From Thermoplasmata archaeon (GTDB lineage: Archaea > Thermoplasmatota > Thermoplasmata > GCA-020350865): a DNA stretch of 64,000 nucleotides. This document shows, piece after piece, positions 13,634 through 34,435 of the stretch. The translations under genes and the position numbers were made by a program. Within the stretch, counting starts at the first letter, position 1. Every line of letters starts with the position of its first letter. Under the pieces are notes generated by a model. The model saw nothing but the letters and a program-made list of their open reading frames with translations, did no database searches and was not told where the DNA came from. Location of the stretch: assembly GCA_020348445.1 (NCBI GenBank), contig CP070751.1, positions 3,875,765 through 3,939,764 on the forward strand, read 5' to 3'.

Positions 13634-14374
13634 TTATCCTTTTTTTCCCATCCTATTTAGGATTTTCTCCAAATTATCGCTATTATTAAAGTCTGCGATC
13701 CCACTCTTCATCATATCTTCGCTTTCTTCTTTTTTTCTTATTTCTTCTATATATGATATCATCTTCGGCAGGGCTCTGACAACATCATCCACTACTGTAA
13801 CATCTGCAGCCTTGGAAGTCCTTGAGAGGGGATTTAGGTCCACAGCGATTATCGTTTTTCCCATTTTCTTAAGAGCAGAAGCCCTGTCTCCATCCTCCAA
13901 GGGTATTATAATCACATCGGCCTCTATGGTGCCTTCCTTGGTGCACAACGCCCTCTTATGGTCCAAACCCGGGATCTCGGCATCGGGATTTTCTCCCAGA
14001 ATCTCTTTTGCACCATGATCTCTAAGAAGGTCAGCTATTTTCTTTACCCGCTCTTCATTCCTGTAAAAGAGGTTTATTTCCAGTTTTGCAGGAATGATTT
14101 CTGATAGTTTTATCATATCATCAGGAACTAAAACAGCAGTGTTACCATTAACAGATACCACGGGATTTTTTGCTAAAAGCAGATGGTATGCCGCGATTTT
14201 TTCCGCTAAATCCGCCTCTAAAACCGTTTTTTCACCTAAAAGGTAATCAAAGGCCTCACCACGGCCGTGGGCAATCAAACCTGCTTCTGCCACAATACCC
14301 ATCTTCATGCCTTCTATGATCTTTTCCCTCTTCATAAGGGACTCGTATCTTGGATGGGTTTTTGGAATTTGCAT
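13634..14374 (-). CDS. Archaeal phosphopantothenate synthetase (4-phosphopantoate--beta-alanine ligase, COG1701)
   Basis: IPKTHPRYESL, GLIAHGRGEAFDYLLGE, SVNGN, LEINLFYR, PLEDGDR and DLNPLSRT motifs. Confidence 0.93.
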   Translation of the reverse strand: MQIPKTHPRYESLMKREKIIEGMKMGIVAEAGLIAHGRGEAFDYLLGEKTVLEADLAEKIAAYHLLLAKNPVVSVNGNTAVLVPDDMIKLSEIIPAKLEINLFYRNEERVKKIADLLRDHGAKEILGENPDAEIPGLDHKRALCTKEGTIEADVIIIPLEDGDRASALKKMGKTIIAVDLNPLSRTSKAADVTVVDDVVRALPKMISYIEEIRKKEESEDMMKSGIADFNNSDNLEKILNRMGKKG

Positions 14375-15547: not shown

Positions 15548-16615
15548 ATGGTTGCGGAGAACGAGGTTTCAAATTGGCTTACGGAATATGACAGAGATGA
15601 GCTGGTAATCGCCACGTTGTGTTCCCATACAAGCCTTCAGATTTTTGATGGTGCTAAAAAAGAGGGTTTCAAGACCCTTGGCATTTCCGTGGGCCCACCT
15701 GCTAAATTCTACGATGCCTTTCCAAAGGGAAAACCTGATGAATTTTTTGTTGTGGATAATCATTCGGACATCCCGGAAAAAGCCGAAGACTTGCGCCAAA
15801 GAAATGTGATATTAATTCCCCATGGCTCCTTTGTTGAGTACCTTGGCCCAGACAACTTTGAGAAACTCCAAGTACCGACCTTCGGGAACAGAAAAGTCCT
15901 GCGATGGGAATCCTCAAGGATCAAGGAAAGGGAGTGGCTAGAAAGTGCGGGAATAGAAATGCCTCAATTGTTCAAAGAACCAGAACAAATCGACAGGCCT
16001 GTTGTGGTTAAGTTCGATGGAGCAAAGGGAGGCAGGGGTTTTTTCATAGTAAAGAATTATAGGGAATTTGAAAAGGTGAATCCCACACAAAGATACACCA
16101 TACAGGAGTACGTCCTTGGCACCAGATATTATCTTCATTATTTTTACTCTCCAATAAAAGAGGATGGCTACAAGCTCTCAAAAGGTATATTGGAGCTATT
16201 GAGTATCGACAGACGTGACGAGACCAACATCGATGAAATGTATAAATTGGGTTCACAAGAGGAATTAAAAAAACTGAGTATTTATCCAAGTTTTGTCGTT
16301 ACTGGGAATGTTCCATTGACAATACGGGAATCACTTTTGGCTGAAGTCTTCGACATGGGGGAAAAGGTCGTTGAAAAATCCTTTGAGCTTTTTGGAGGCA
16401 TAATTGGACCTTTTTGTCTCGAAACAATTGTGAACGATGAGCTTCAGTTCAAGGTTTTCGAGGTCTCGGCCAGAATAGTCGCAGGTACGAATCCTTTTAT
16501 CTCCGGCTCACCATACTCCGAGTTTTTAGAGTCAAATCTCTCCACAGGCAGAAGAATTGCCCAGGAGATAAATATGGCCAATGAAATGGACAGGCTCGAT
16601 GAAATACTTAGCTGA
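15548..16615 (+). CDS. purP: 5-formaminoimidazole-4-carboxamide ribonucleotide synthetase (ATP-grasp PurP family)
   Basis: IATLCSHTSLQI, PHGSF, FGNR.VLRWE, GAKGGRG, HYFYSP, TGN.P..IRESLL, GPFCL and SARIVAGTN. Confidence 0.9.
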   Translation: MVAENEVSNWLTEYDRDELVIATLCSHTSLQIFDGAKKEGFKTLGISVGPPAKFYDAFPKGKPDEFFVVDNHSDIPEKAEDLRQRNVILIPHGSFVEYLGPDNFEKLQVPTFGNRKVLRWESSRIKEREWLESAGIEMPQLFKEPEQIDRPVVVKFDGAKGGRGFFIVKNYREFEKVNPTQRYTIQEYVLGTRYYLHYFYSPIKEDGYKLSKGILELLSIDRRDETNIDEMYKLGSQEELKKLSIYPSFVVTGNVPLTIRESLLAEVFDMGEKVVEKSFELFGGIIGPFCLETIVNDELQFKVFEVSARIVAGTNPFISGSPYSEFLESNLSTGRRIAQEINMANEMDRLDEILS

Positions 16616-16629
16616 TTTTTATTTTGGTA

Positions 16630-18195
16630 TCAATGTTTAAAGAGCCTTATTCCCGAAAACACCATGGACATACCGTGCTCGTTGGCTGCCGCAATAACCT
16701 CATCGTCCCGAACAGATCCTCCTGGCTGGATTATTGCAGCTACTCCGAACTTCGCTGCTGCGTCCACACCATCCCTGAACGGGAAAAATGCATCCGAGGC
16801 CATAACACTACCCTTGGCCTTCTCTCCTGCCTTGCGGGCAGCTATCATTGAAGCATCCACTCTACTCATTTGGCCTGCACCAATTCCCACTGTCTGCTCA
16901 CCTTGAGCTAGTAAAATGGAGTTTGACTTCACATGCTTCAGAACCTTGCAGGCGAAAACCATGGTTTTCAGCTCCGCCTCCGTGGGTTTCTTATCTGTAA
17001 CTACCTTCAAGCTCCTTGGATTGATTTCGGGGAAATCCCCTGTCTGAATCAAAAGACCGCCCTTGACCTTCATCATCTTGTGTTCTACAGGTGATTCTCT
17101 TTTAATAGGAACACCGGTTTTTAGCAGTCTTATGCTTTTTTTCTTAGATAGCAGATCCAGTGCATCTTTGTCAAATTCAGGGGCAATTACAGCTTCTACA
17201 AAGTGTTTCTTGATCTCTTCTGCCGTGGCCAAATCACAATCTCTGTTCAGACCTACTACACTGCCGAAAGCAGAAAGAGAATCTGCAGCTTCACCAATAC
17301 TATAAGCCTCAGAAATTGTATCAGCACTGGCGACACCACAAGGATTCGTGTGCTTTATTACAGATGCAGTGGGTCTATCAAAGTCCATAACGATATCTAA
17401 TGCTGAATCCAAATCGATGATATTGTTGAAGGATAGATCCTTTCCATGGAGCTTGATGGCGTTGCCAACACAAACTCCCGAAAATCTCGTGTTCATATAA
17501 AACGCAGCCTGTTGATGCGGATTTTCTCCATATCTAAGGTCCAACGCCTTTTCATATCCCAAACCTATTACATCTGGGAAGGGCTTTGAAGGTGTGAATT
17601 TCTTGTGGAGAAAGTCAGAAATCACACTGTCGTATTTTGCAGTGTGTTCAAAGGCTTCCAATGCCAGCTTGGAGGAGAAATCAGATGATATCCCTCCACC
17701 GTTAGTTTTCAGTTCCTGTAGTATATCATCATATCTTTCTGGATTTACAACAACAGCCACACCGTTGTGGTTTTTTGCAGCAGAGCGTATCATGGTGGGG
17801 CCACCGATATCTATGTTCTCAATGGCCTCATCTATGCTTACATCTTTTTTCTTAATGGTAGCCTCGAAAGGATAGAGATTAACGATCACCATGTCAATTG
17901 GCGTTATGCCATGCTCCTTTAATTGGGTCATATGTCTCTCAGAATCTCTAATGGCAAGTATACCCCCGTGGACTTTGGGGTGGAGCGTTTTTACCCTTCC
18001 ATTCAGCATCTCTGGGAACTTGGTATACTCTGATACAAGTTTAACGGGAACTCCATTTTCCTTAAGCAGTTTTGCTGTTCCACCTGTTGAAAGAATTTCC
18101 ACTTTAAGATCTGCAAGACCTCTTGCGAATTCCACAATACCCTGCTTGTCCGATACGCTAATTAATGCTCGATTTATCTTGATCAAGTTTCTCAC
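16630..18195 (-). CDS. purH: Bifunctional AICAR transformylase/IMP cyclohydrolase
   Basis: RALISVSDK, STGGTA, GRVKTLHPKVHGG, ENIDIGGPTMIRSAAKN, LRYGENPHQ, KHTNPCG, GAGQMSRVD and SDAFFPF. Confidence 0.97.
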   Translation of the reverse strand: MRNLIKINRALISVSDKQGIVEFARGLADLKVEILSTGGTAKLLKENGVPVKLVSEYTKFPEMLNGRVKTLHPKVHGGILAIRDSERHMTQLKEHGITPIDMVIVNLYPFEATIKKKDVSIDEAIENIDIGGPTMIRSAAKNHNGVAVVVNPERYDDILQELKTNGGGISSDFSSKLALEAFEHTAKYDSVISDFLHKKFTPSKPFPDVIGLGYEKALDLRYGENPHQQAAFYMNTRFSGVCVGNAIKLHGKDLSFNNIIDLDSALDIVMDFDRPTASVIKHTNPCGVASADTISEAYSIGEAADSLSAFGSVVGLNRDCDLATAEEIKKHFVEAVIAPEFDKDALDLLSKKKSIRLLKTGVPIKRESPVEHKMMKVKGGLLIQTGDFPEINPRSLKVVTDKKPTEAELKTMVFACKVLKHVKSNSILLAQGEQTVGIGAGQMSRVDASMIAARKAGEKAKGSVMASDAFFPFRDGVDAAAKFGVAAIIQPGGSVRDDEVIAAANEHGMSMVFSGIRLFKH

Positions 18196-19712: not shown

Positions 19713-20630
19713 TCATTTTATTTGGATATCCCCTTTATTATGTTTCTTTTTCCAGGCCCCATAGGCCTCATAAGCCGAAAAGAAGAACAATGAATTAGCG
19801 ATAAAAAGTTCTCTAATCTCGAATGCTCTGTTACCATTTAAGCGATATGCGGTGTCCAAATTGATATTTATTGCAATAACGAGCAAACCCATTATCATAA
19901 CCAAAGAGAACTGAAAAAAGGGATACTCGAAGTTACTGAAGAAAAGCCGAAATTTCCCTGAGAGTATGATTATTGTTGGGAGAGATACCGCTATTATCAT
20001 TAAGGAAATATACCAATGAAAACCAGGGTTGGAGTAGAAGACAAGTGCCATATAAAAGCATGCAATAAGATCAGGATTCACAATAGGGAGCTTGAGCCTA
20101 TCAAAAAACAAATCAGCCTTTTTCCATCCCAGTTTAAGAATTGGTAATATGATTCCTACAGAGATAACAAAAAGAGCCATGAGAATATGAATCCACATCA
20201 TTGAGTTCTCGATTCCGATGTTATGAACATTGGCCTCATCCTGCACATTTACATCTCGGAGGGTTTCTGGTGTTGAGTAACCAAAGAATCTCTGCCCCCA
20301 GCTGATCTCCTCAAAGAAAAAGAATAGAAATAGACCCAGAAATAGAATGTAAAAGAGGAACTGTCGCTTCTGACTTCCTTTGACTTTCGAAGTCATAAAG
20401 ATTGCGAAACCCCACACAGCAGCCCCTATTAGATAAAATACCGCCTGCATATTCTCTATTGCCCCGTCCTCTTTTACTAGGTCCTTTACTGCGTCTAAAT
20501 CCAAAAAGGCATATATGATCATAAAAAGACCGAATAAGAAAAATATGATGATGATAATACTTGCAGGAAATTTTCCTATGAATCTTTTTGTTTCGTTCAT
20601 CTTCAATCGTCTTTGAGAATGAAGATTCAT
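19713..20630 (-). CDS. Hypothetical polytopic membrane protein
   Basis: About eight TM helices; EDG.IE and EEISWGQR...N.Q.E.N.HN motifs of an uncharacterised family. Confidence 0.75.
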   Translation of the reverse strand: MNLHSQRRLKMNETKRFIGKFPASIIIIIFFLFGLFMIIYAFLDLDAVKDLVKEDGAIENMQAVFYLIGAAVWGFAIFMTSKVKGSQKRQFLFYILFLGLFLFFFFEEISWGQRFFGYSTPETLRDVNVQDEANVHNIGIENSMMWIHILMALFVISVGIILPILKLGWKKADLFFDRLKLPIVNPDLIACFYMALVFYSNPGFHWYISLMIIAVSLPTIIILSGKFRLFFSNFEYPFFQFSLVMIMGLLVIAININLDTAYRLNGNRAFEIRELFIANSLFFFSAYEAYGAWKKKHNKGDIQIK

Positions 20631-20661
20631 ATAAATCTAATTTGCTATCCATAATAAACAA

Positions 20662-20849
20662 TAGCTCCGGGCCGAAGAAATACGATATAATTGATATGTC
20701 ATTATATTTCTAGGCAAGGGGCTACTCTGGATGACGACTAGAAAAAGATAAAGAGTAGCTCCGGGCCGAAGAAATAAGACCTAATTGATGTTCTATTATA
20801 TTTCTAGGCAAGGGGCTACTCTGGGGGAAGACTAGAAAAAGATAAAGAG
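20662..20849. repeat. Two tandem 94-bp units downstream of tRNA-Gln(CTG); each a hairpin module capped by tRNA 3'-end copies
   Basis: TAGCTCCGGG at 20662 and 20756 (and TAGCCCCGGG at 20850); inverted copies GGGGCTACTCT at 20718-28 and 20812-22; inner stem GCC..AGAAATA/TATTTCT.GGC. Confidence 0.9.
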
Positions 20850-20951
20850 TAGCCCCGGGTGGATTCGAACCACCGCCTAAACCTTTTGGCATCTCCCTCC
20901 GCTGGGCAACCCCTCACAAAAGGTTTTAGGGTCATCCCAAAACTCGGGGTC
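20850..20951 (-). other. tRNA-like element: intact T arm and acceptor 3' strand, anticodon/D region replaced by a long hairpin
   Basis: 20842-20875 matches 20973-21006 at 33/34 nt; 13-bp hairpin 20876-88/20917-30; CGGGGTC at 20945-51 can close the acceptor stem. Confidence 0.7.
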
Positions 20952-20980
20952 GTCCTGCTCACTCGATGATAAATAAAGAG

Positions 20981-21054
20981 TAGCTCCGGGTGGATTCGAA
21001 CCACCGTCACGGGATCCAGAATCCCGCATGATTGACCACCTACAATACGGAGCT
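20981..21054 (-). tRNA. tRNA-Gln(CTG), archaeal type (A1-U72, A73), no encoded CCA
   Basis: AGCTCCG/CGGAGCT acceptor; CGGGA-TTCTGGA-TCCCG anticodon arm; GGTGG-TTCGAAT-CCACC T arm; weak D stem (U10/U25 and U13/U22 unpaired). Confidence 0.92.
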
Positions 21055-21233: not shown

Positions 21234-22934
21234 TTAAGTTGTTTTTTGTTGCTGCTGTTTTTGAATCTTGGCCCATGTGTCCCTCAATCCGACGGTTCTG
21301 TTGAAAATCAGCTTCTCTGAGTTGGAATCTGGGTCCACACAGAAATAACCAAGTCGCTCGAATTGGATTCGATCCAACGGTTTAAGGTTCTTTACTGCAG
21401 GTTCTATCTTACATGATGTTAGAACTTCGAGGGAATTAGGATTAATGAAATCCTTAAAGTCCGCATCCTTATGTCCCGCGGGGTCCTTCTCTGTAAAAAG
21501 CTTGTCGTACAACCTAACCTCGGCATCCATTGCGTGGCGAGCTGAAACCCAATGCAATGTGGATTTTACTTTACGACCATCAGGTGCATTGCCCCCTCGC
21601 GTATCGGGATCCACGGTACATCTGAGCTCAACGACCTTCCCATTCTGTTTAATAGCCTCCTTGCACTTAACAAAGTACGCATATCTGAACCGCACCTCAC
21701 GACCTGGTGCTAAGCGGTAGAACTTCTTGGGAGGTTCCTCCATAAAATCCTCTTCCTCGATGCAAAGCTCCCTGGAAAAGGGTACCTTTCGAGTCCCTGC
21801 TGATGGGTCCTCTGGATTGTTTACAGCCTCCATCTCCTCCACCTTATCATCGGGGTAATTTTCAATAACCACCTTGAGCGGTTGAAGTACACCCATGAAC
21901 CTTGGGGCTGTTTTATTCAAATCTTCCCTTATACAATATTCAAGAAATTCGAAGTCAACCATACTGTTTACCTTGGCCACGCCGATTCGCTTGCAGAAAT
22001 TTCTAATTGCAGCTGGAGAATAACCTCGTCTTCTCATTCCGCTTATCGTGGGTAACCTGGGATCATCCCACCCATTGACGTGACCCTCATCCACCAATTG
22101 TTTGAGCATACGCTTGCTCATTACAGTATAGGTAATATTCAACCTGGCGAATTCAATTTGTTGTGGATGATAGACCTCTATTTGATCCAAGAACCAATCG
22201 TATAAAGGTCTGTGATTCTCGAACTCTAAAGTGCAGATGGAATGCGTGATGTTCTCGATTGAATCTTCAAGCCCGTGTGCCCAGTCGTACATGGGATAGA
22301 TGCACCATTTTTCACCTGTGTTGTGATGACTCGCATGTAGGATTCGATATACAATTGGGTCCCGCATATTCATATTTGGGTGCGACATGTCTATCTTGGC
22401 CCTAAGAACCTTTTCACCATCTCCAAACTCACCAGCCCTCATTCTTGTGAACACATCAAGGTTTTCTTCTATTGACCTATCACGATAGGGACTTTTCTGT
22501 CCGGGACTTGTAAGGGTTCCTCTTGTTCTGCTGATTTCATCTGCAGTTGAATCATCTACGTATGCCTTACCTCTTTTAACCAACTCAACAGCATAATCAT
22601 ACATTTGATCAAAGTAATCCGAAGCAAAAAAGAGCCTATCCTCCCAGTCAAATCCAAGCCATCTTACATCCTCGATTATAGATCTAACATATTCCTCTTC
22701 CTCTTTTGCTGGATTGGTATCATCGAATCTGAGATTGCACTTGCCCTTGTAATCCTCTGCTATGCCAAAGTTCAGGCAGATAGACTTTGCATGCCCAATG
22801 TGCAGATAGCCGTTGGGTTCGGGTGGGAACCTTGTATGAACTCGACCACCGTATTTATTCGTCCTTAGGTCTTCATTGATTATATCGCGAATGAAATCGT
22901 GAGCCTCTGCCTCTTCACTGGGCATATCTTTCAC
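21234..22934 (-). CDS. glnS: Glutamine--tRNA ligase, bacterial type (no YqeY domain)
   Basis: [79 protein letters not shown] and [11 protein letters not shown]; colinear with E. coli GlnRS over the full length. Confidence 0.96.
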
Positions 22935-23075: not shown

Positions 23076-23435
23076 ATGGCAAGAGTAGTACATTTCGATA
23101 TTAGTGCAGAAAATCCACAAGAATTGAGAAAATTTTATGAAACTGTTTTTGGATGGAGGTTTGAGAAATGGGAAGGCCCCATGGAGTACTGGATGATCAT
23201 GACAGGGGAGGGACCTGGAATCGATGGAGGAATGTCAAAGAGGGGAGAGCAGAACATGGACATAAATACCATCGACGTCCCAAATCTGGATGAGTTTATT
23301 CAAAAGGTTCAGGAAAAAAGAGCCACCATTGTTGCGCCTAAGATAGCTATTCCGGGAATTGGCTGGTATGCGGTTTTCAAGGATTCCGAGGGTAACATAT
23401 TCGGCATGATGCAGGACGACAAAGAAGCGAAATGA
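23076..23435 (+). CDS. VOC/glyoxalase-family protein
   Basis: RVVHFDI...FY..VFGW.F, GIDGG, IPGIGW.A.F.D.EGN..G motifs. Confidence 0.9.
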   Translation: MARVVHFDISAENPQELRKFYETVFGWRFEKWEGPMEYWMIMTGEGPGIDGGMSKRGEQNMDINTIDVPNLDEFIQKVQEKRATIVAPKIAIPGIGWYAVFKDSEGNIFGMMQDDKEAK

Positions 23436-23469
23436 GTAAAAAGCCCCGGCCCCGAGAAACAGATTCTAT

Positions 23470-23535
23470 CAGCCCCGGCCTCTTCGTGCTTAAGAACCCA
23501 ACATATCCAAGCATAACACGAAGAGAAAGGGGCTG
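23470..23535. repeat. Downstream hairpin module of tRNA-Gln(TTG)
   Basis: CAGCCCC/GGGGCTG outer stem; CTCTTCGTG/CACGAAGAG inner stem; core CTTAAGAACCCAACATATCCAAGCATAAC; 97 bp from the tRNA 3' end. Confidence 0.88.
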
Positions 23536-23566
23536 TTTCGTTTCTCTACAATTTAAATTAGAGAAA

Positions 23567-23637
23567 CAGCCCCGGCCAGAATCGAACTGGCGCCAAGAGA
23601 TCCAAAGTCTCTGATGCTACCTCTACACCACGGGGCT
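23567..23637 (-). tRNA. tRNA-Gln(TTG), 71 nt, G73 discriminator
   Basis: AGCCCCG TG GTGT AGAGGTA GCAT C AGAGA CTTTGGA TCTCT TGGC GCCAG TTCGATT CTGGC CGGGGCT G folds as a full cloverleaf. Confidence 0.92.
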
Positions 23638-23666
23638 ATTTGGTTGGAACATTAATTCAGTCAAAT

Positions 23667-23845
23667 AGCCCCTTCGTAGTAAGAAAAGCTTTGGGTTCTT
23701 GCTAGGTTTTCTTTTCTTCCTACCACGGGGCTATTTTACCACCACGGGGCTTCTTAGTTTTATTTATACTTTGATACGAATCCCCTTAGCATTAAGAAAA
23801 GCGTTCAAATTCTAATGGGAATTCTTTTCTTAATACCACGGGACT
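23667..23845. repeat. Two upstream hairpin modules of tRNA-Gln(TTG) plus a short extra 5'-end copy
   Basis: CCACGGGGCT copies end at 23732 and 23751, CCACGGGACT at 23845 (95 and 94 bp steps); inner stems AGTAAGAAAAG/CTTTTCTTCCT and ATTAAGAAAAG/CTTTTCTTAAT. Confidence 0.85.
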
Positions 23846-23875
23846 ACTTTACTTTTATTTATTCAATTCTACTTT

Positions 23876-23941
23876 CAGCCCCGGCCTCCTCGTGCTTAAG
23901 ATCCAAGCGTTTTTAAGCATAACGCGAGGGGGAAGGGGCTG
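23876..23941. repeat. Downstream hairpin module of the second tRNA-Gln(CTG)
   Basis: CAGCCCC/GGGGCTG; CTCCTCGTG/CGCGAGGGG inner stem; core CTTAAGATCCAAGCGTTTTTAAGCATAAC; 97 bp from the tRNA 3' end. Confidence 0.88.
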
Positions 23942-23972
23942 TTTCGTTTCTCTACAATTTAAATTAGAGAAA

Positions 23973-24043
23973 CAGCCCCGGCCAGATTCGAACTGGCGCC
24001 AAGAGATCCAGAGTCTCTGATGCTACCTCTACACCACGGGGCT
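23973..24043 (-). tRNA. tRNA-Gln(CTG), 71 nt, G73 discriminator; paralog of 23567-23637
   Basis: Identical to the TTG gene except at anticodon position 34 and one T-loop base; offset 406 bp. Confidence 0.93.
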
Positions 24044-24072
24044 ATTTGGTTGGAACATTAATTCATTCAAAT

Positions 24073-24165
24073 AGCCCCTTTGCAGTAAAAAAAGCGTTGG
24101 GATAGTGTTGTGTTTTCTTTTTTTACTACCACGGGGCTACTGCACTCTTAAACAACCTCGGGGCT
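24073..24165. repeat. Upstream hairpin module of the second tRNA-Gln(CTG) plus outer 5'-end copy
   Basis: AGCCCC at 24073; AGTAAAAAAAG/CTTTTTTTACT stem; CCACGGGGCT ends 24138 (95 bp step); CCTCGGGGCT ends 24165. Confidence 0.85.
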
Positions 24166-24193
24166 TATTTGATGCAAGAGAATGCATAAACAA

Positions 24194-24202
24194 TTATAAA
24201 AA
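24194..24202 (-). promoter_or_regulatory. Candidate TATA box for the tRNA-Gln cassette
   Basis: TTTTTATAA on the minus strand about 30 bp upstream of the outermost 5'-end copy. Confidence 0.4.
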
Positions 24203-24229: not shown

Positions 24230-25843
24230 CTATTTGGCTACTTCCCCGATTCTTCCCACAACAAATCCCTTGTCCAAGGTGGATAAAAAATAACCTAGCC
24301 TAGGCCCATGCTTCTGATCGAGTATTGCCTGATATACCAGTTGAAAGGCCGTTTTAGACTTGATATTCTGGATCTGAGCCAATTCATAAATCGCATTATG
24401 GATGGCATCAGGTGCCCATTCCTCTTGGGTGAGCTTGATTGATAGGTCTTCAAGGTATTTCTTATGGTCGGATTCCAAGGTTATCTTAGGAGTTTCCTTT
24501 GCGATTGAGAACTTAACCTTTTCAGGTGCAAAATTGTCAAGCCAGAACTTCACACATCCTATTCTCTGCTTTAGGTGATTCTCATCCTCTTTGCTGAGAC
24601 TTTCAAAATGCTCTGCCCTCTTCAAGATATCTAGGATTCCTTCAAAGTCCTCATTGATCTGAACAACACTTACAAGATGTCTATAAGGTATTTGCAAAGG
24701 AAGTTTAGAGGGAAGGGAAAAAGGCTGAGAGAGTTCATAGGTTCTCGCCAATTCCTCCTCAATCTTCTCGATTCGTTTGGACTTGTCATCTGCGCTACCT
24801 TCGAAATATCTTTTCTCTGTTGAGTCGTATTCGTCCACGAGGTTTAGAATTCCAAGGCCTGGATCAAAATCAAGATGCTTAATTGGATTGTTTCTAAGAA
24901 CAAAGTACCTGAAAACCTCGGGAGGGGTCATCTTAAGCATTTTGGCTGCGCTGATCACAACACCAGTCGAGGATGACATGGCACCCTTACCCTTTAACTG
25001 AATCCATTCGTAGACAACATATTGTGGAGCCTTCCTATCAAAGACCTCCTCTGAAATCCTCTTTGCTGTGTCGTACGATCCTCCAGCTGCTGCATGATCT
25101 TTACCAAAAGGTTCGAATGTAACCCCTAAAAACCACCACCTTGCAGGCCAATCAACCCTCCACGGTAGCTTGCCATCGTCTTTTCGCAAATCCGCTTTAC
25201 CTTCATGACCACAAGAGCAAGTATAATTGACATATGGAAATTCATAGCCAATGACCTTGGTTGTGGTAAGCCGCCCACATTCACTGCACTTCGGATTGTA
25301 AGGAAACCAGTCATCGGGAAGATCACGTTTTGAAATATCCTGGAGTATCTCCTTTATCCTATCTTTATTGTCCAGCACCTTTCTAGATGCCTCTGTGTAC
25401 ATTCCCTGAGCGTACATTTCATGGGAGAGAAGGACATTGGCCTCTATCCCAAGAGTTTTTGCAGCATCGAGAAATGGAGTAAGAAAATGCTCGGCATAGG
25501 ACTTGTGGCTACTGCATGGACAGGGAATTTCGGAGAGAGGTTTACCCACGTGCTCCTTATAGCTTTCATCTAAAAAAGGATAAACCTTACGAAGGGGGTC
25601 GATGGTATCGCCAATGTATATCAATTGGGCTTCAACATTCTTCTGTTTAAGACCCCGAGTTATTACCTCACCTGTAAGAATCTCCCGCATATTGCCAACA
25701 TGGATGTCTCCAGAAGGGGTAATCCCTGTAGCTATCACATGCCTTTCAGAAAAACTTTGGAGCCTCTTACTCTCAACGTCAACCCAGTGCATTCTCTCAC
25801 GCAATCGTACGGGCTCTAATAAGCGATCTAGTGGGCACACCAT
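24230..25843 (-). CDS. lysS: Class I lysine--tRNA ligase (likely start MHWVD near 25792)
   Basis: TGITPSGDIHVGN, KLPWRVDWPARW, EPFGKDHAAAGGSYD, MSSSTG and GPRLG motifs. Confidence 0.95.
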   Translation of the reverse strand: MVCPLDRLLEPVRLRERMHWVDVESKRLQSFSERHVIATGITPSGDIHVGNMREILTGEVITRGLKQKNVEAQLIYIGDTIDPLRKVYPFLDESYKEHVGKPLSEIPCPCSSHKSYAEHFLTPFLDAAKTLGIEANVLLSHEMYAQGMYTEASRKVLDNKDRIKEILQDISKRDLPDDWFPYNPKCSECGRLTTTKVIGYEFPYVNYTCSCGHEGKADLRKDDGKLPWRVDWPARWWFLGVTFEPFGKDHAAAGGSYDTAKRISEEVFDRKAPQYVVYEWIQLKGKGAMSSSTGVVISAAKMLKMTPPEVFRYFVLRNNPIKHLDFDPGLGILNLVDEYDSTEKRYFEGSADDKSKRIEKIEEELARTYELSQPFSLPSKLPLQIPYRHLVSVVQINEDFEGILDILKRAEHFESLSKEDENHLKQRIGCVKFWLDNFAPEKVKFSIAKETPKITLESDHKKYLEDLSIKLTQEEWAPDAIHNAIYELAQIQNIKSKTAFQLVYQAILDQKHGPRLGYFLSTLDKGFVVGRIGEVAK

Positions 25844-32908: not shown

Positions 32909-34435
32909 ATGTATAAAGTAAAAAAAATAGATCTTTGCGCAGGCGAGTTCACTGTTATACTCCATGAGAAGGATGCAAAGGAGTTGGGTGTGAGGAATTT
33001 GGATAGAGTTAGGGTGGTGGGACCAAAAAGTAGCATCACCGCCATTGTGGAAACCACAGATAGCATTGTAGATACAGAAGAGGTGGGATTGCTTGAAATA
33101 GGTTTTAATACTCTCGAGATAAAGGATGGCATGAATGTGGATTTGATGCCCACCACTAGACCGGAATCTGTTGATTTCATTAAGAAGAAGATGAATGGTC
33201 AAGAATTGAGCCAAGAGGAGATAAGGGCAATAGTTAAGGATATAGTGGATAGAACCCTGTCAGATATTGAGCTTTCAGCCTATGTAACCGCGGTTTATAT
33301 AAATAGTATGAACCTAAGAGAAATCACAGATTTGACAAAAGCCATGGTGGAAACTGGAGACATCATTGAGATCGACAAAAAACCTATCTTCGATTTCCAC
33401 AGCATAGGCGGTGTTCCCGGTAATAAGGTCACCCTCTTGGTTGTTCCTATTTTAGCTGCTGCAGGCCTGACCATACCCAAGACCAGTTCTCGGGCCATTA
33501 GTAGTGCATGTGGTACTGCAGACATCTTCGAGGTCCTTGCAAATGTCACACTAAAGGCCTCCGAAATAAAACGAATAACAGAGAGTGTTGGAGGAGTGAT
33601 TGCCTGGGGAGGTGGTGTGAATATCGCTCCTGCGGACGATCTCATCATTCGAGCTGAATATCCCTTGGCAATCGATCCCTACTCGCAGGTTATAGCTTCT
33701 GTGGTGGCAAAGAAGAAAGCCGTTGGCGCAGAGTATTTCCTCCTAGATATCCCAATTGGCCAAGGAACAAAGGTTCCGGATGAAGAGCTTGCTAAAAAAT
33801 ATGCCAGGGATTTCATGGATCTTGGGGAAAGATTGGACATAAGAGTTGAATGTGCAATCACATATGGGGGCCAGCCCATTGGTAGGGCTATCGGATGTTC
33901 CCTTGAAGCAAGTGAGGCCATGATGGCTTTGGAAGGTAAAGAGGTGGCAGGTAGTCTAATCGAGAAGGCCTGCGGGTTGGCGGGGATAATGCTGGAGATG
34001 GGGGGAGTCGTCCACGGCTCTGGTAAGGAATATGCCAAGAAACTTCTGGATAATGGAAAGGCTCTAGAAAAGATGAAGGAGATCATCCAGGCTCAAGGAG
34101 GGGATCCTGATATTAAATCCGAGGGCATTAAAATTGGAGAATGCAAATTTGACTTTATCACAAATACCGGCGGGTATATTGCCGAGATCAGAAACAAGCA
34201 TCTTGTGAAAATAGCTAGGGCAGCAGGTTCACCAAAGGATAAAGGCGCAGGTGTCATTCTTAAGAAAAAAGGTGGCGACAAAGTGGAAAAGGGGGAGGTG
34301 GTATTCACGATTTGTGCTGACAATGAAAGGAAATTGGAGAATGCAAAATCAATTGCACAGCGCTTAGTCCCCATCAATATAGAAGGTATGATACTTCAAA
34401 AGATCCCTTCCTACCATCGTCCAAGTGTTCTTTAA
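32909..34435 (+). CDS. deoA: AMP phosphorylase
   Basis: N-terminal double-psi domain, HSIGGVPGNK, KTSSRAISS..GTAD, DIP.G...K and G.P.DKGAG. Confidence 0.95.
   Translation: MYKVKKIDLCAGEFTVILHEKDAKELGVRNLDRVRVVGPKSSITAIVETTDSIVDTEEVGLLEIGFNTLEIKDGMNVDLMPTTRPESVDFIKKKMNGQELSQEEIRAIVKDIVDRTLSDIELSAYVTAVYINSMNLREITDLTKAMVETGDIIEIDKKPIFDFHSIGGVPGNKVTLLVVPILAAAGLTIPKTSSRAISSACGTADIFEVLANVTLKASEIKRITESVGGVIAWGGGVNIAPADDLIIRAEYPLAIDPYSQVIASVVAKKKAVGAEYFLLDIPIGQGTKVPDEELAKKYARDFMDLGERLDIRVECAITYGGQPIGRAIGCSLEASEAMMALEGKEVAGSLIEKACGLAGIMLEMGGVVHGSGKEYAKKLLDNGKALEKMKEIIQAQGGDPDIKSEGIKIGECKFDFITNTGGYIAEIRNKHLVKIARAAGSPKDKGAGVILKKKGGDKVEKGEVVFTICADNERKLENAKSIAQRLVPINIEGMILQKIPSYHRPSVL

Follow-up and report, generated by a model that had tools for sequence, protein, structure and literature searches.

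A bacterial-type glutaminyl-tRNA synthetase gene linked to tRNA-Gln genes in the archaeal phylum Thermoplasmatota

The chromosome of a Thermoplasmata archaeon encodes a bacterial-type glutaminyl-tRNA synthetase (GlnRS), and its gene, glnS, is surrounded by tRNA-Gln genes. The locus lies in a stretch of 64,000 nucleotides that was analysed as a whole and is called the window here. Taken together, the observations are very probably best explained by a working GlnRS that was acquired once from bacteria, by the linkage of its gene to tRNA-Gln genes with accompanying changes in these tRNAs, and by a coexisting GluRS and GatDE route. GlnRS would attach glutamine directly to tRNA-Gln, alongside the GluRS and GatDE route encoded in the same genome.

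Archaea are stated to lack GlnRS, in reviews up to 2022 (PMC5388404, PMC2330236, PMC8762117, PMC9499178). The absence is explained by the co-evolution of archaeal tRNA-Gln and GatDE, which leaves the tRNA unusable by GlnRS (PMC2330236, PMC9499178, PMC8762117). The presence of GlnRS in archaea, its linkage to tRNA genes and its coexistence with GatDE are unexpected, and together they contradict the textbook statement. The locus and its many relatives suggest that the barrier between archaeal tRNA-Gln and GlnRS has been crossed at least once, and the tRNA positions that changed alongside the enzyme are the discriminator base and D-loop positions 20a/20b. Because the barrier appears to have been crossed and the changed positions are known, the co-evolution explanation is directly testable with a few enzymes and tRNA transcripts. 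The reconstruction of glutamine decoding in the widespread, uncultured Thermoplasmatota is also affected, and natural GlnRS/tRNA pairs have a possible use in orthogonal translation.

The original prediction cautioned that annotations of archaeal metagenome-assembled genomes (MAGs) might already list GlnRS, and this is the case. Relatives of the protein are named [quoted passage not shown] at NCBI and "glutaminyl-tRNA synthetase" at JGI. No published description of GlnRS in Thermoplasmatota was found in the literature searched. A preprint mentions in passing a GlnRS beside cox genes in Heimdallarchaeia (10.1101/2024.07.04.601786). The "GlnRS" of a Pyrodictiaceae paper was disregarded since its KO and EC numbers are mismatched.

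The glnS gene and its product

The reading frame at 21234-22934 on the minus strand is uninterrupted. The likely start of glnS is the ATG at 22925, which is preferred because it aligns to Met1 of E. coli GlnS; an alternative in-frame GTG at 22934 would give a protein of 566 amino acids. The product scores 755.4 bits on the NCBIfam model TIGR00440 glnS (cut-off 425.8) and 365.8 bits on the archaeal gltX model, which is under the cut-off of 401.75. Its Pfam domains are PF00749 (tRNA-synt_1c, the class I E/Q catalytic domain) and the two C-terminal anticodon-binding barrels PF03950 and PF20974, and the top-ranking PDB structures are without exception GlnRS. The HIGH, VMSKR, YPMYD and CTLEF motifs are all found, and the description of the protein as a full-length GlnRS with HIGH, MSKR and glutamine-specificity residues therefore holds. 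It has the same length and domain order as E. coli GlnS (PDB 1GTR, 1QTQ, 1O0B), is 57% identical to it over the full length and keeps HIGH, VMSKR, R30, L136, Y211, C229, Q255, R341, R402, R410 and Q517. It differs from E. coli GlnS in its archaeal host, in Asn235 and Asp323 (E. coli numbering) and in the tRNA-Gln genes that flank its gene. As an enzyme, the protein does not stand out within the GlnRS family.

The top NCBIfam score belongs to PRK14703 (GlnRS/YqeY fusion, 872 bits), the model of the Deinococcus radiodurans GlnRS-YqeY protein (PDB 2HZ7). Identity as such a fusion was rejected, since the match is confined to profile positions 9-566 of 769 and the protein ends at residue 563 or 566, according to the start. 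The C-terminal YqeY domain of the D. radiodurans protein is absent, and a Pfam search found no YqeY or other extra domain in the window GlnRS. The name "GlnRS/YqeY fusion" is therefore a misnomer for the archaeal proteins.

To assess residue conservation, 32 archaeal and 60 bacterial relatives were aligned to E. coli GlnS, whose numbering is used. The residues of the glutamine and ATP sites (R30, D66, Y211, C229, Q255, K270) are invariant in 32/32 archaeal copies. The glutamine-selecting residues among them, R30, Y211, C229 and Q255, are present in the window GlnRS and invariant in the 60 bacterial relatives too. U35, G36 and C/U34 of the anticodon are read by R341, R402, R410 and Q517. The first three are invariant in all 32 aligned archaeal copies, and Q517 and R520, also an anticodon reader, are found in 31, the remaining row being gapped. 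The open reading frame is intact in all 52 archaeal glnS copies examined. Archaeal and bacterial GlnRS are told apart by just two alignment columns (E. coli 483 and 510).

Two positions concern the acceptor stem of the tRNA. Asp235 of E. coli GlnS reads G3, and the D235N mutant has relaxed specificity. Position 235 is Asn in 30 and Asp in 25 of the bacterial relatives. An archaeal adaptation of Asn235 to C3-G70 was ruled out, as Asn is equally common in the bacterial relatives; its presence in about half of them indicates that the change arrived with the gene. Leu136 is the wedge that opens the 1-72 pair. It is found in 58/60 bacterial relatives and in the window GlnRS, and the archaeal copies have 21 Leu, 5 Val, 3 Trp, 2 Tyr and 1 Thr at this position.

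tRNA-Gln genes beside glnS and elsewhere

The features of the locus and the other tRNA-Gln genes of the genome are collected in Table 1. Three tRNA-Gln genes lie within about 3.1 kb on the same strand as glnS, on which ARAGORN and Rfam agree. The whole 5.16 Mb genome has only five, and finding three of them so close together is far beyond chance (about 5e-9 by a rough estimate). The flanking of glnS by three tRNA-Gln genes was thus predicted correctly, and the prediction can be refined, as the three are of two kinds: two are short with G73 and one is canonical-like with A73. At least one tRNA-Gln gene occurs within about 3 kb of glnS in 48/51 archaeal loci. Among the bacterial relatives this applies to 1/60, and that one is a bacterial U1-A72 tRNA. 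The linkage is therefore of archaeal origin and has been retained. In the usual archaeal layout, a tRNA-Gln with CUG anticodon is upstream of glnS and one with UUG, or a tRNA-Glu, is downstream.

Table 1. Coordinates of glnS, tRNA-Gln genes and neighbouring features (window positions unless a contig is named)
Feature	Position	Strand	Remarks
Archaeal 4-phosphopantoate--beta-alanine ligase	13634-14374		archaeal neighbour gene
PurP	15548-16615		archaeal neighbour gene
PurH-type AICARFT/IMPCHase	16630-18195		Pfam
tRNA-Gln 3'-half copy and two 94-nt tandem units	20654..20875	-	downstream of A73 tRNA
tRNA-Gln(CUG), long	20981..21054	-	74 nt including N73; A1-U72, A73, U10, long D-loop
glnS, bacterial-type GlnRS	21234..22925	-	563 aa from ATG at 22925; without YqeY tail
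Small glyoxalase/VOC-fold ORF	23076..23435	+	between glnS and the short tRNAs
tRNA-Gln(UUG), short	23567..23637	-	71 nt including N73; A1-U72, G2-C71, G10, 7-nt D-loop, G73
tRNA-Gln(CUG), short	23973..24043	-	71 nt, G73
Class I lysyl-tRNA synthetase	24230..25843	-	upstream neighbour; TIGR00467 lysS_arch, 552 bits
AMP phosphorylase	32909-34435		archaeal neighbour gene
tRNA-Gln(UUG), long	G000:C1:223989-224062		outside window; A73/U10
tRNA-Gln(UUG), bacterial-type	G000:C1:1131963-1132034 (locus L162:7964-8035)		in provirus-like stretch

The long tRNA-Gln of the window is 180 nt downstream of glnS and resembles canonical archaeal tRNA-Gln. The two short G73/G10 genes sit in a 406-nt tandem duplication upstream of glnS and differ only at position 34 and in one T-loop base. 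The short UUG gene has counterparts upstream of glnS in three genomes of the same genus, with 93-97% identity. The genes were compared with the bacterial identity set, which comprises G73, a weak 1-72 pair, G2-C71, G3-C70, G10, U35, G36, A37 and U38. The short tRNAs share G73, the weak A1-U72, G2-C71, G10, U35 and G36 with this set and differ in C3-G70, G37 and A38; the long tRNA differs in A73 and U10. With the identity set of E. coli, the short linked tRNAs have G73, G10, G2-C71 and U35-G36 in common, whereas the U1-A72, G3-C70 and A37-U38 of E. coli tRNA-Gln are A1-U72, C3-G70 and G37-A38 in the candidate substrates.

The bacterial-type tRNA-Gln(UUG) of the provirus-like stretch has U1-A72, G2-C71, G3-C70, G10, A37-U38 and G73, and such a tRNA would fit a bacterial-type GlnRS. 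It adjoins a P22-like portal gene (PF16510, 291 bits), whose identity to known phage portals does not exceed 26%, and lies beside a small GroES-like ORF, and the GC content there matches the host. The long tRNA-Gln(UUG) outside the window has an apparent C33 (loop CCUUGGA) in place of the near-universal U33.

Many partial copies of the tRNA-Gln acceptor strand surround the tRNA genes at 20654-20875 and 23440-24200. A 3'-half copy of 34 nt (20842-20875) is 97% identical to 20973-21006, the two 94-nt tandem units carry acceptor-strand fragments, and fragments with the sequences AGCCCCGTGG and GGCCGGGGCT are repeated around each G73 tRNA. These copies may have been left by duplication, integration or recombination, or they may serve as processing signals. 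No integrase was found adjoining them; ORF 19713-20630 has no family match even at E 1, and therefore gives no sign of an integrase beside the fragments. In another genome of the genus (G003:C6:31741-31863), the match to the second short tRNA-Gln upstream of glnS is split into two parts, one covering positions 1-37 and the other 36-71, about 50 nt apart. An intron at the canonical position would account for this arrangement.

A survey covered 117 tRNA-Gln genes, with lengths taken from the intron-free ones. Its counts come from related genomes and are hence not independent: in GlnRS-negative Thermoplasmata, 27/27 tRNA-Gln are 73 nt long and 29/32 have A73, while next to glnS 56/70 are 71-72 nt long and 37/73 have G73. 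Away from glnS in GlnRS-positive genomes, lengths of 72, 73 and 74 nt are found in 5, 4 and 3 genes, and all 12 have A73. The glnS-linked tRNAs thus usually have a D-loop that is 1-2 nt shorter, and about half have G73 as against the archaeal A73. In the alignment, the missing nucleotides of the short tRNAs are directly after G18-G19, at 20a/20b.

GatDE recognises A1-U72 and D-loop positions 19-20, and archaeal tRNA-Gln is not charged by E. coli or yeast GlnRS (PMC2330236). The determinants of bacterial GlnRS include G73 and G10 or the 10-25 pair (PMC9976931, PMC9499178). Set against these published recognition sites, the tRNA changes fall where both enzymes look. Linked tRNA-Gln genes retain the archaeal A1-U72, and in most of them one or two D-loop nucleotides are missing at 20a/20b. 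In several lineages, including the genus of the window, A73 has given way to G73, which is the discriminator that bacterial GlnRS uses. We infer that these tRNA changes are adaptations to GlnRS. G73 as a marker of GlnRS alone was ruled out, as two GlnRS-negative genomes have it, one of them closed and with G73 in both tRNA-Gln genes (G017), the other in one gene (G016). Many GlnRS-linked tRNAs keep A73, and G73 is therefore not required.

Origin of the gene and integrity of the locus

The main tree comprised 154 GlnRS rows (50%-identity representatives, E. coli, eukaryote-like sequences, the nearest bacteria and 19 archaeal copies) and was rooted on the genome's own GluRS; all trees were made by a short search under LG+G4 with SH-aLRT support only. 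The 19 archaeal sequences group as a single clade (SH-aLRT 99), which lies within a bacterial subclade (96) and several nodes deep in bacterial diversity, with Ignavibacteriota-like rows as sister and Ignavibacteriota, Planctomycetota, Chloroflexota and others as neighbours. The eukaryote-like GlnRS form one clade far from the archaeal clade. The window GlnRS lies within the bacterial GlnRS clade that contains E. coli GlnS, and the genome's own GluRS is a distant outgroup; both the profile scores and the tree thus place the protein with GlnRS rather than GluRS. When 20 copies from other classes of the phylum were added, the 52 archaeal rows again formed one clade (99). In this enlarged tree a long-branch metagenomic representative (P0007) intrudes in the archaeal clade, and it falls elsewhere in the 154-row tree. 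Its membership was rejected as probable long-branch attraction; its contig has no tRNA-Gln and has an anti-sigma-like neighbour.

The gene exceeds the glnS cut-off in 14/41 near relatives, among them every one of the five genomes of the genus, and in 57/301 sampled genomes of Thermoplasmatota. The nearest bacterial GlnRS are 66-74% identical to the window protein. They come from MAGs of Planctomycetota, Chloroflexota and Ignavibacteriota, surround the archaeal clade in the trees and share Asn235 and Asp323; some are much longer matches, whereas the 563-residue archaeal copies are without YqeY. The nesting of one archaeal clade in bacterial GlnRS points to a single old transfer from bacteria to archaea, followed by descent within Thermoplasmatota. 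An ancestor in this phylum would have acquired glnS in one event, from a bacterium with a GlnRS like those found today in Planctomycetota, Chloroflexota and Ignavibacteriota. The gene would then have settled beside tRNA-Gln genes and been inherited, perhaps also exchanged, within the phylum. The predicted horizontal acquisition thus stands. It is refined in its age: the gene occurs as one clade in many genomes, which marks the transfer as an old event common to the phylum and not a recent one in this genome.

The window is part of a single closed contig of 5,156,303 bases, and the GC content at the glnS locus (0.42) equals that of its flanks. Of the archaeal neighbours named in the original prediction, class I lysyl-tRNA synthetase (LysRS) and PurP were confirmed. 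Within the genus, the gene order is LysRS, tRNA-Gln, glnS, tRNA-Gln, a 305-residue ORF and a pterin-binding gene. One genome of the genus (G001) is a closed 3.2 Mb chromosome, and it also carries the glyoxalase/VOC-fold ORF. In distant families (loci L013, L014, L017, L024, L025, L030, L036), a class I LysRS homologue that is only 28-32% identical to the window LysRS lies upstream of tRNA-Gln and glnS. Either the synteny is old and the sequence has diverged fast, or the gene is a different paralogue.

Two other accounts of the origin were weighed. A bacterial fragment joined into archaeal sequence by an assembly or binning error would agree with the bacterial affinity of the closest non-archaeal relatives. 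This account is effectively refuted by the single closed contig and its archaeal neighbours, which rule out a binning artefact, and by the order LysRS/tRNA-Gln/glnS/tRNA-Gln, which recurs in dozens of independent assemblies, other closed chromosomes among them. The archaeal A1-U72 acceptor ends of the flanking tRNAs, the unremarkable GC content and the separate clade of archaeal GlnRS argue against it as well. A transfer in the reverse direction, with Thermoplasmatota as the source of GlnRS for Planctomycetota, Chloroflexota and other bacteria, draws on the tree of the nearest relatives, in which a single branch simply divides archaea from bacteria and the GluRS outgroup, which is very long, attaches among the archaea. 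That root, on GluRS alone and with a branch length of 8.9, was considered unreliable and replaced by broader sampling. With E. coli, eukaryote-like and GluRS rows included, the archaeal clade nests in bacteria, and most families of the phylum among the 301 sampled genomes yielded no GlnRS, so that the reverse direction is very improbable.

Coexistence with the indirect pathway

A search of the genome for gatD, gatE and GluRS found one archaeal GluRS (PRK04156, 726 bits), two gatD (548 and 518 bits) and two gatE (685 and 565 bits). The predicted direct glutaminylation would agree with the intact GlnRS, and the prediction needs refinement in that the indirect route remains beside it. The gatD and gatE loci are at G000:C1:3724387-3729503, 4116284-4117471 and 2877665-2879575. 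One gatD/gatE pair is adjacent and divergent, the other two genes are far apart, and several other Thermoplasmata have two copies as well.

The indirect route of Methanothermobacter thermautotrophicus, with ND-GluRS and GatDE (PMC2330236), gives the same end product, Gln-tRNA-Gln, and all its genes are present in this genome. Formerly regarded as the sole archaeal route, it proceeds in two steps via Glu-tRNA-Gln, whereas charging by GlnRS is direct; the long A73 tRNAs resemble its usual substrates. A second synthetase reserved for tRNA-Gln has precedents in Helicobacter pylori GluRS2 and Acidithiobacillus GluRS1/GluRS2, where the identity elements lie in the acceptor stem and the D-arm (PMC9976931). 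These enzymes attach glutamate and need an amidotransferase, whereas the window enzyme appears to be a true GlnRS.

Most GlnRS carriers retain GatDE. In one GlnRS-positive genome that is 93% complete (G012), no GatD or GatE match was found at E 1e-5, and all its tRNA-Gln genes have A73. In a closed genome of the same genus as the window (G001), GatD is reduced to a 60-residue remnant, while two gatE and glnS are kept. Its short tRNA-Gln is lost apart from a relic of 26 nt upstream of glnS, and the sole tRNA-Gln detected is the long A73 CUG gene that adjoins glnS. The two genomes support a working GlnRS that is able to use A73 tRNAs and speak against strict insulation of two tRNA sets. We infer that GlnRS charges the linked tRNAs with glutamine, and G012 and G001 support this indirectly.

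These genomes also bear on how the two routes may share the tRNA-Gln pool. In a division of labour between two insulated systems, GlnRS would use only the short G73/G10 tRNAs, and GluRS with GatDE only the long A73/U10 tRNAs. Each kind of tRNA has one CUG and one UUG gene, and two gatD and two gatE are retained. The short tRNAs have G73 and G10, which are determinants of bacterial GlnRS (PMC2330236, PMC9976931), and are without D-loop nucleotides in the region read by GatDE; the long ones have A73 and U10. Against this division, G001 has neither short tRNAs nor an intact gatD, yet it has glnS and a long A73 tRNA; G012 has only A73 tRNA-Gln and no detected GatDE; and G73 is also present in some genomes that use GatDE and have no GlnRS. 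Strict orthogonality is weakened by G001 and G012, and full insulation is a doubtful reading. It can be hypothesized, as tentatively, that the genus has split its tRNA-Gln pool into a G73/G10/short-D-loop set for GlnRS and an A73/U10/long-D-loop set for GatDE and is now in mid-replacement. If true, this would be a natural, mutually insulated glutamine-charging pair in one archaeal cell. At the other extreme, glnS could be a redundant relic or have another role, such as regulation or tRNA-independent chemistry, with Gln-tRNA made only via GluRS and GatDE. The retention of GluRS and of both gatD and gatE copies here, and of the indirect route in most carriers, would agree with this; it is nevertheless highly unlikely given the intact reading frames of the 52 archaeal copies, their invariant catalytic, glutamine-binding and anticodon residues, the linkage to tRNA-Gln conserved across the phylum and the carriers that are without GatDE or GatD. 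A working GlnRS beside the GluRS and GatDE route thus remains the preferred reading.

About 27 kb from the GluRS gene, some 20 tRNA genes of diverse specificity are packed into 3 kb (G000:C1:4640570-4643566), and several of them contain introns.
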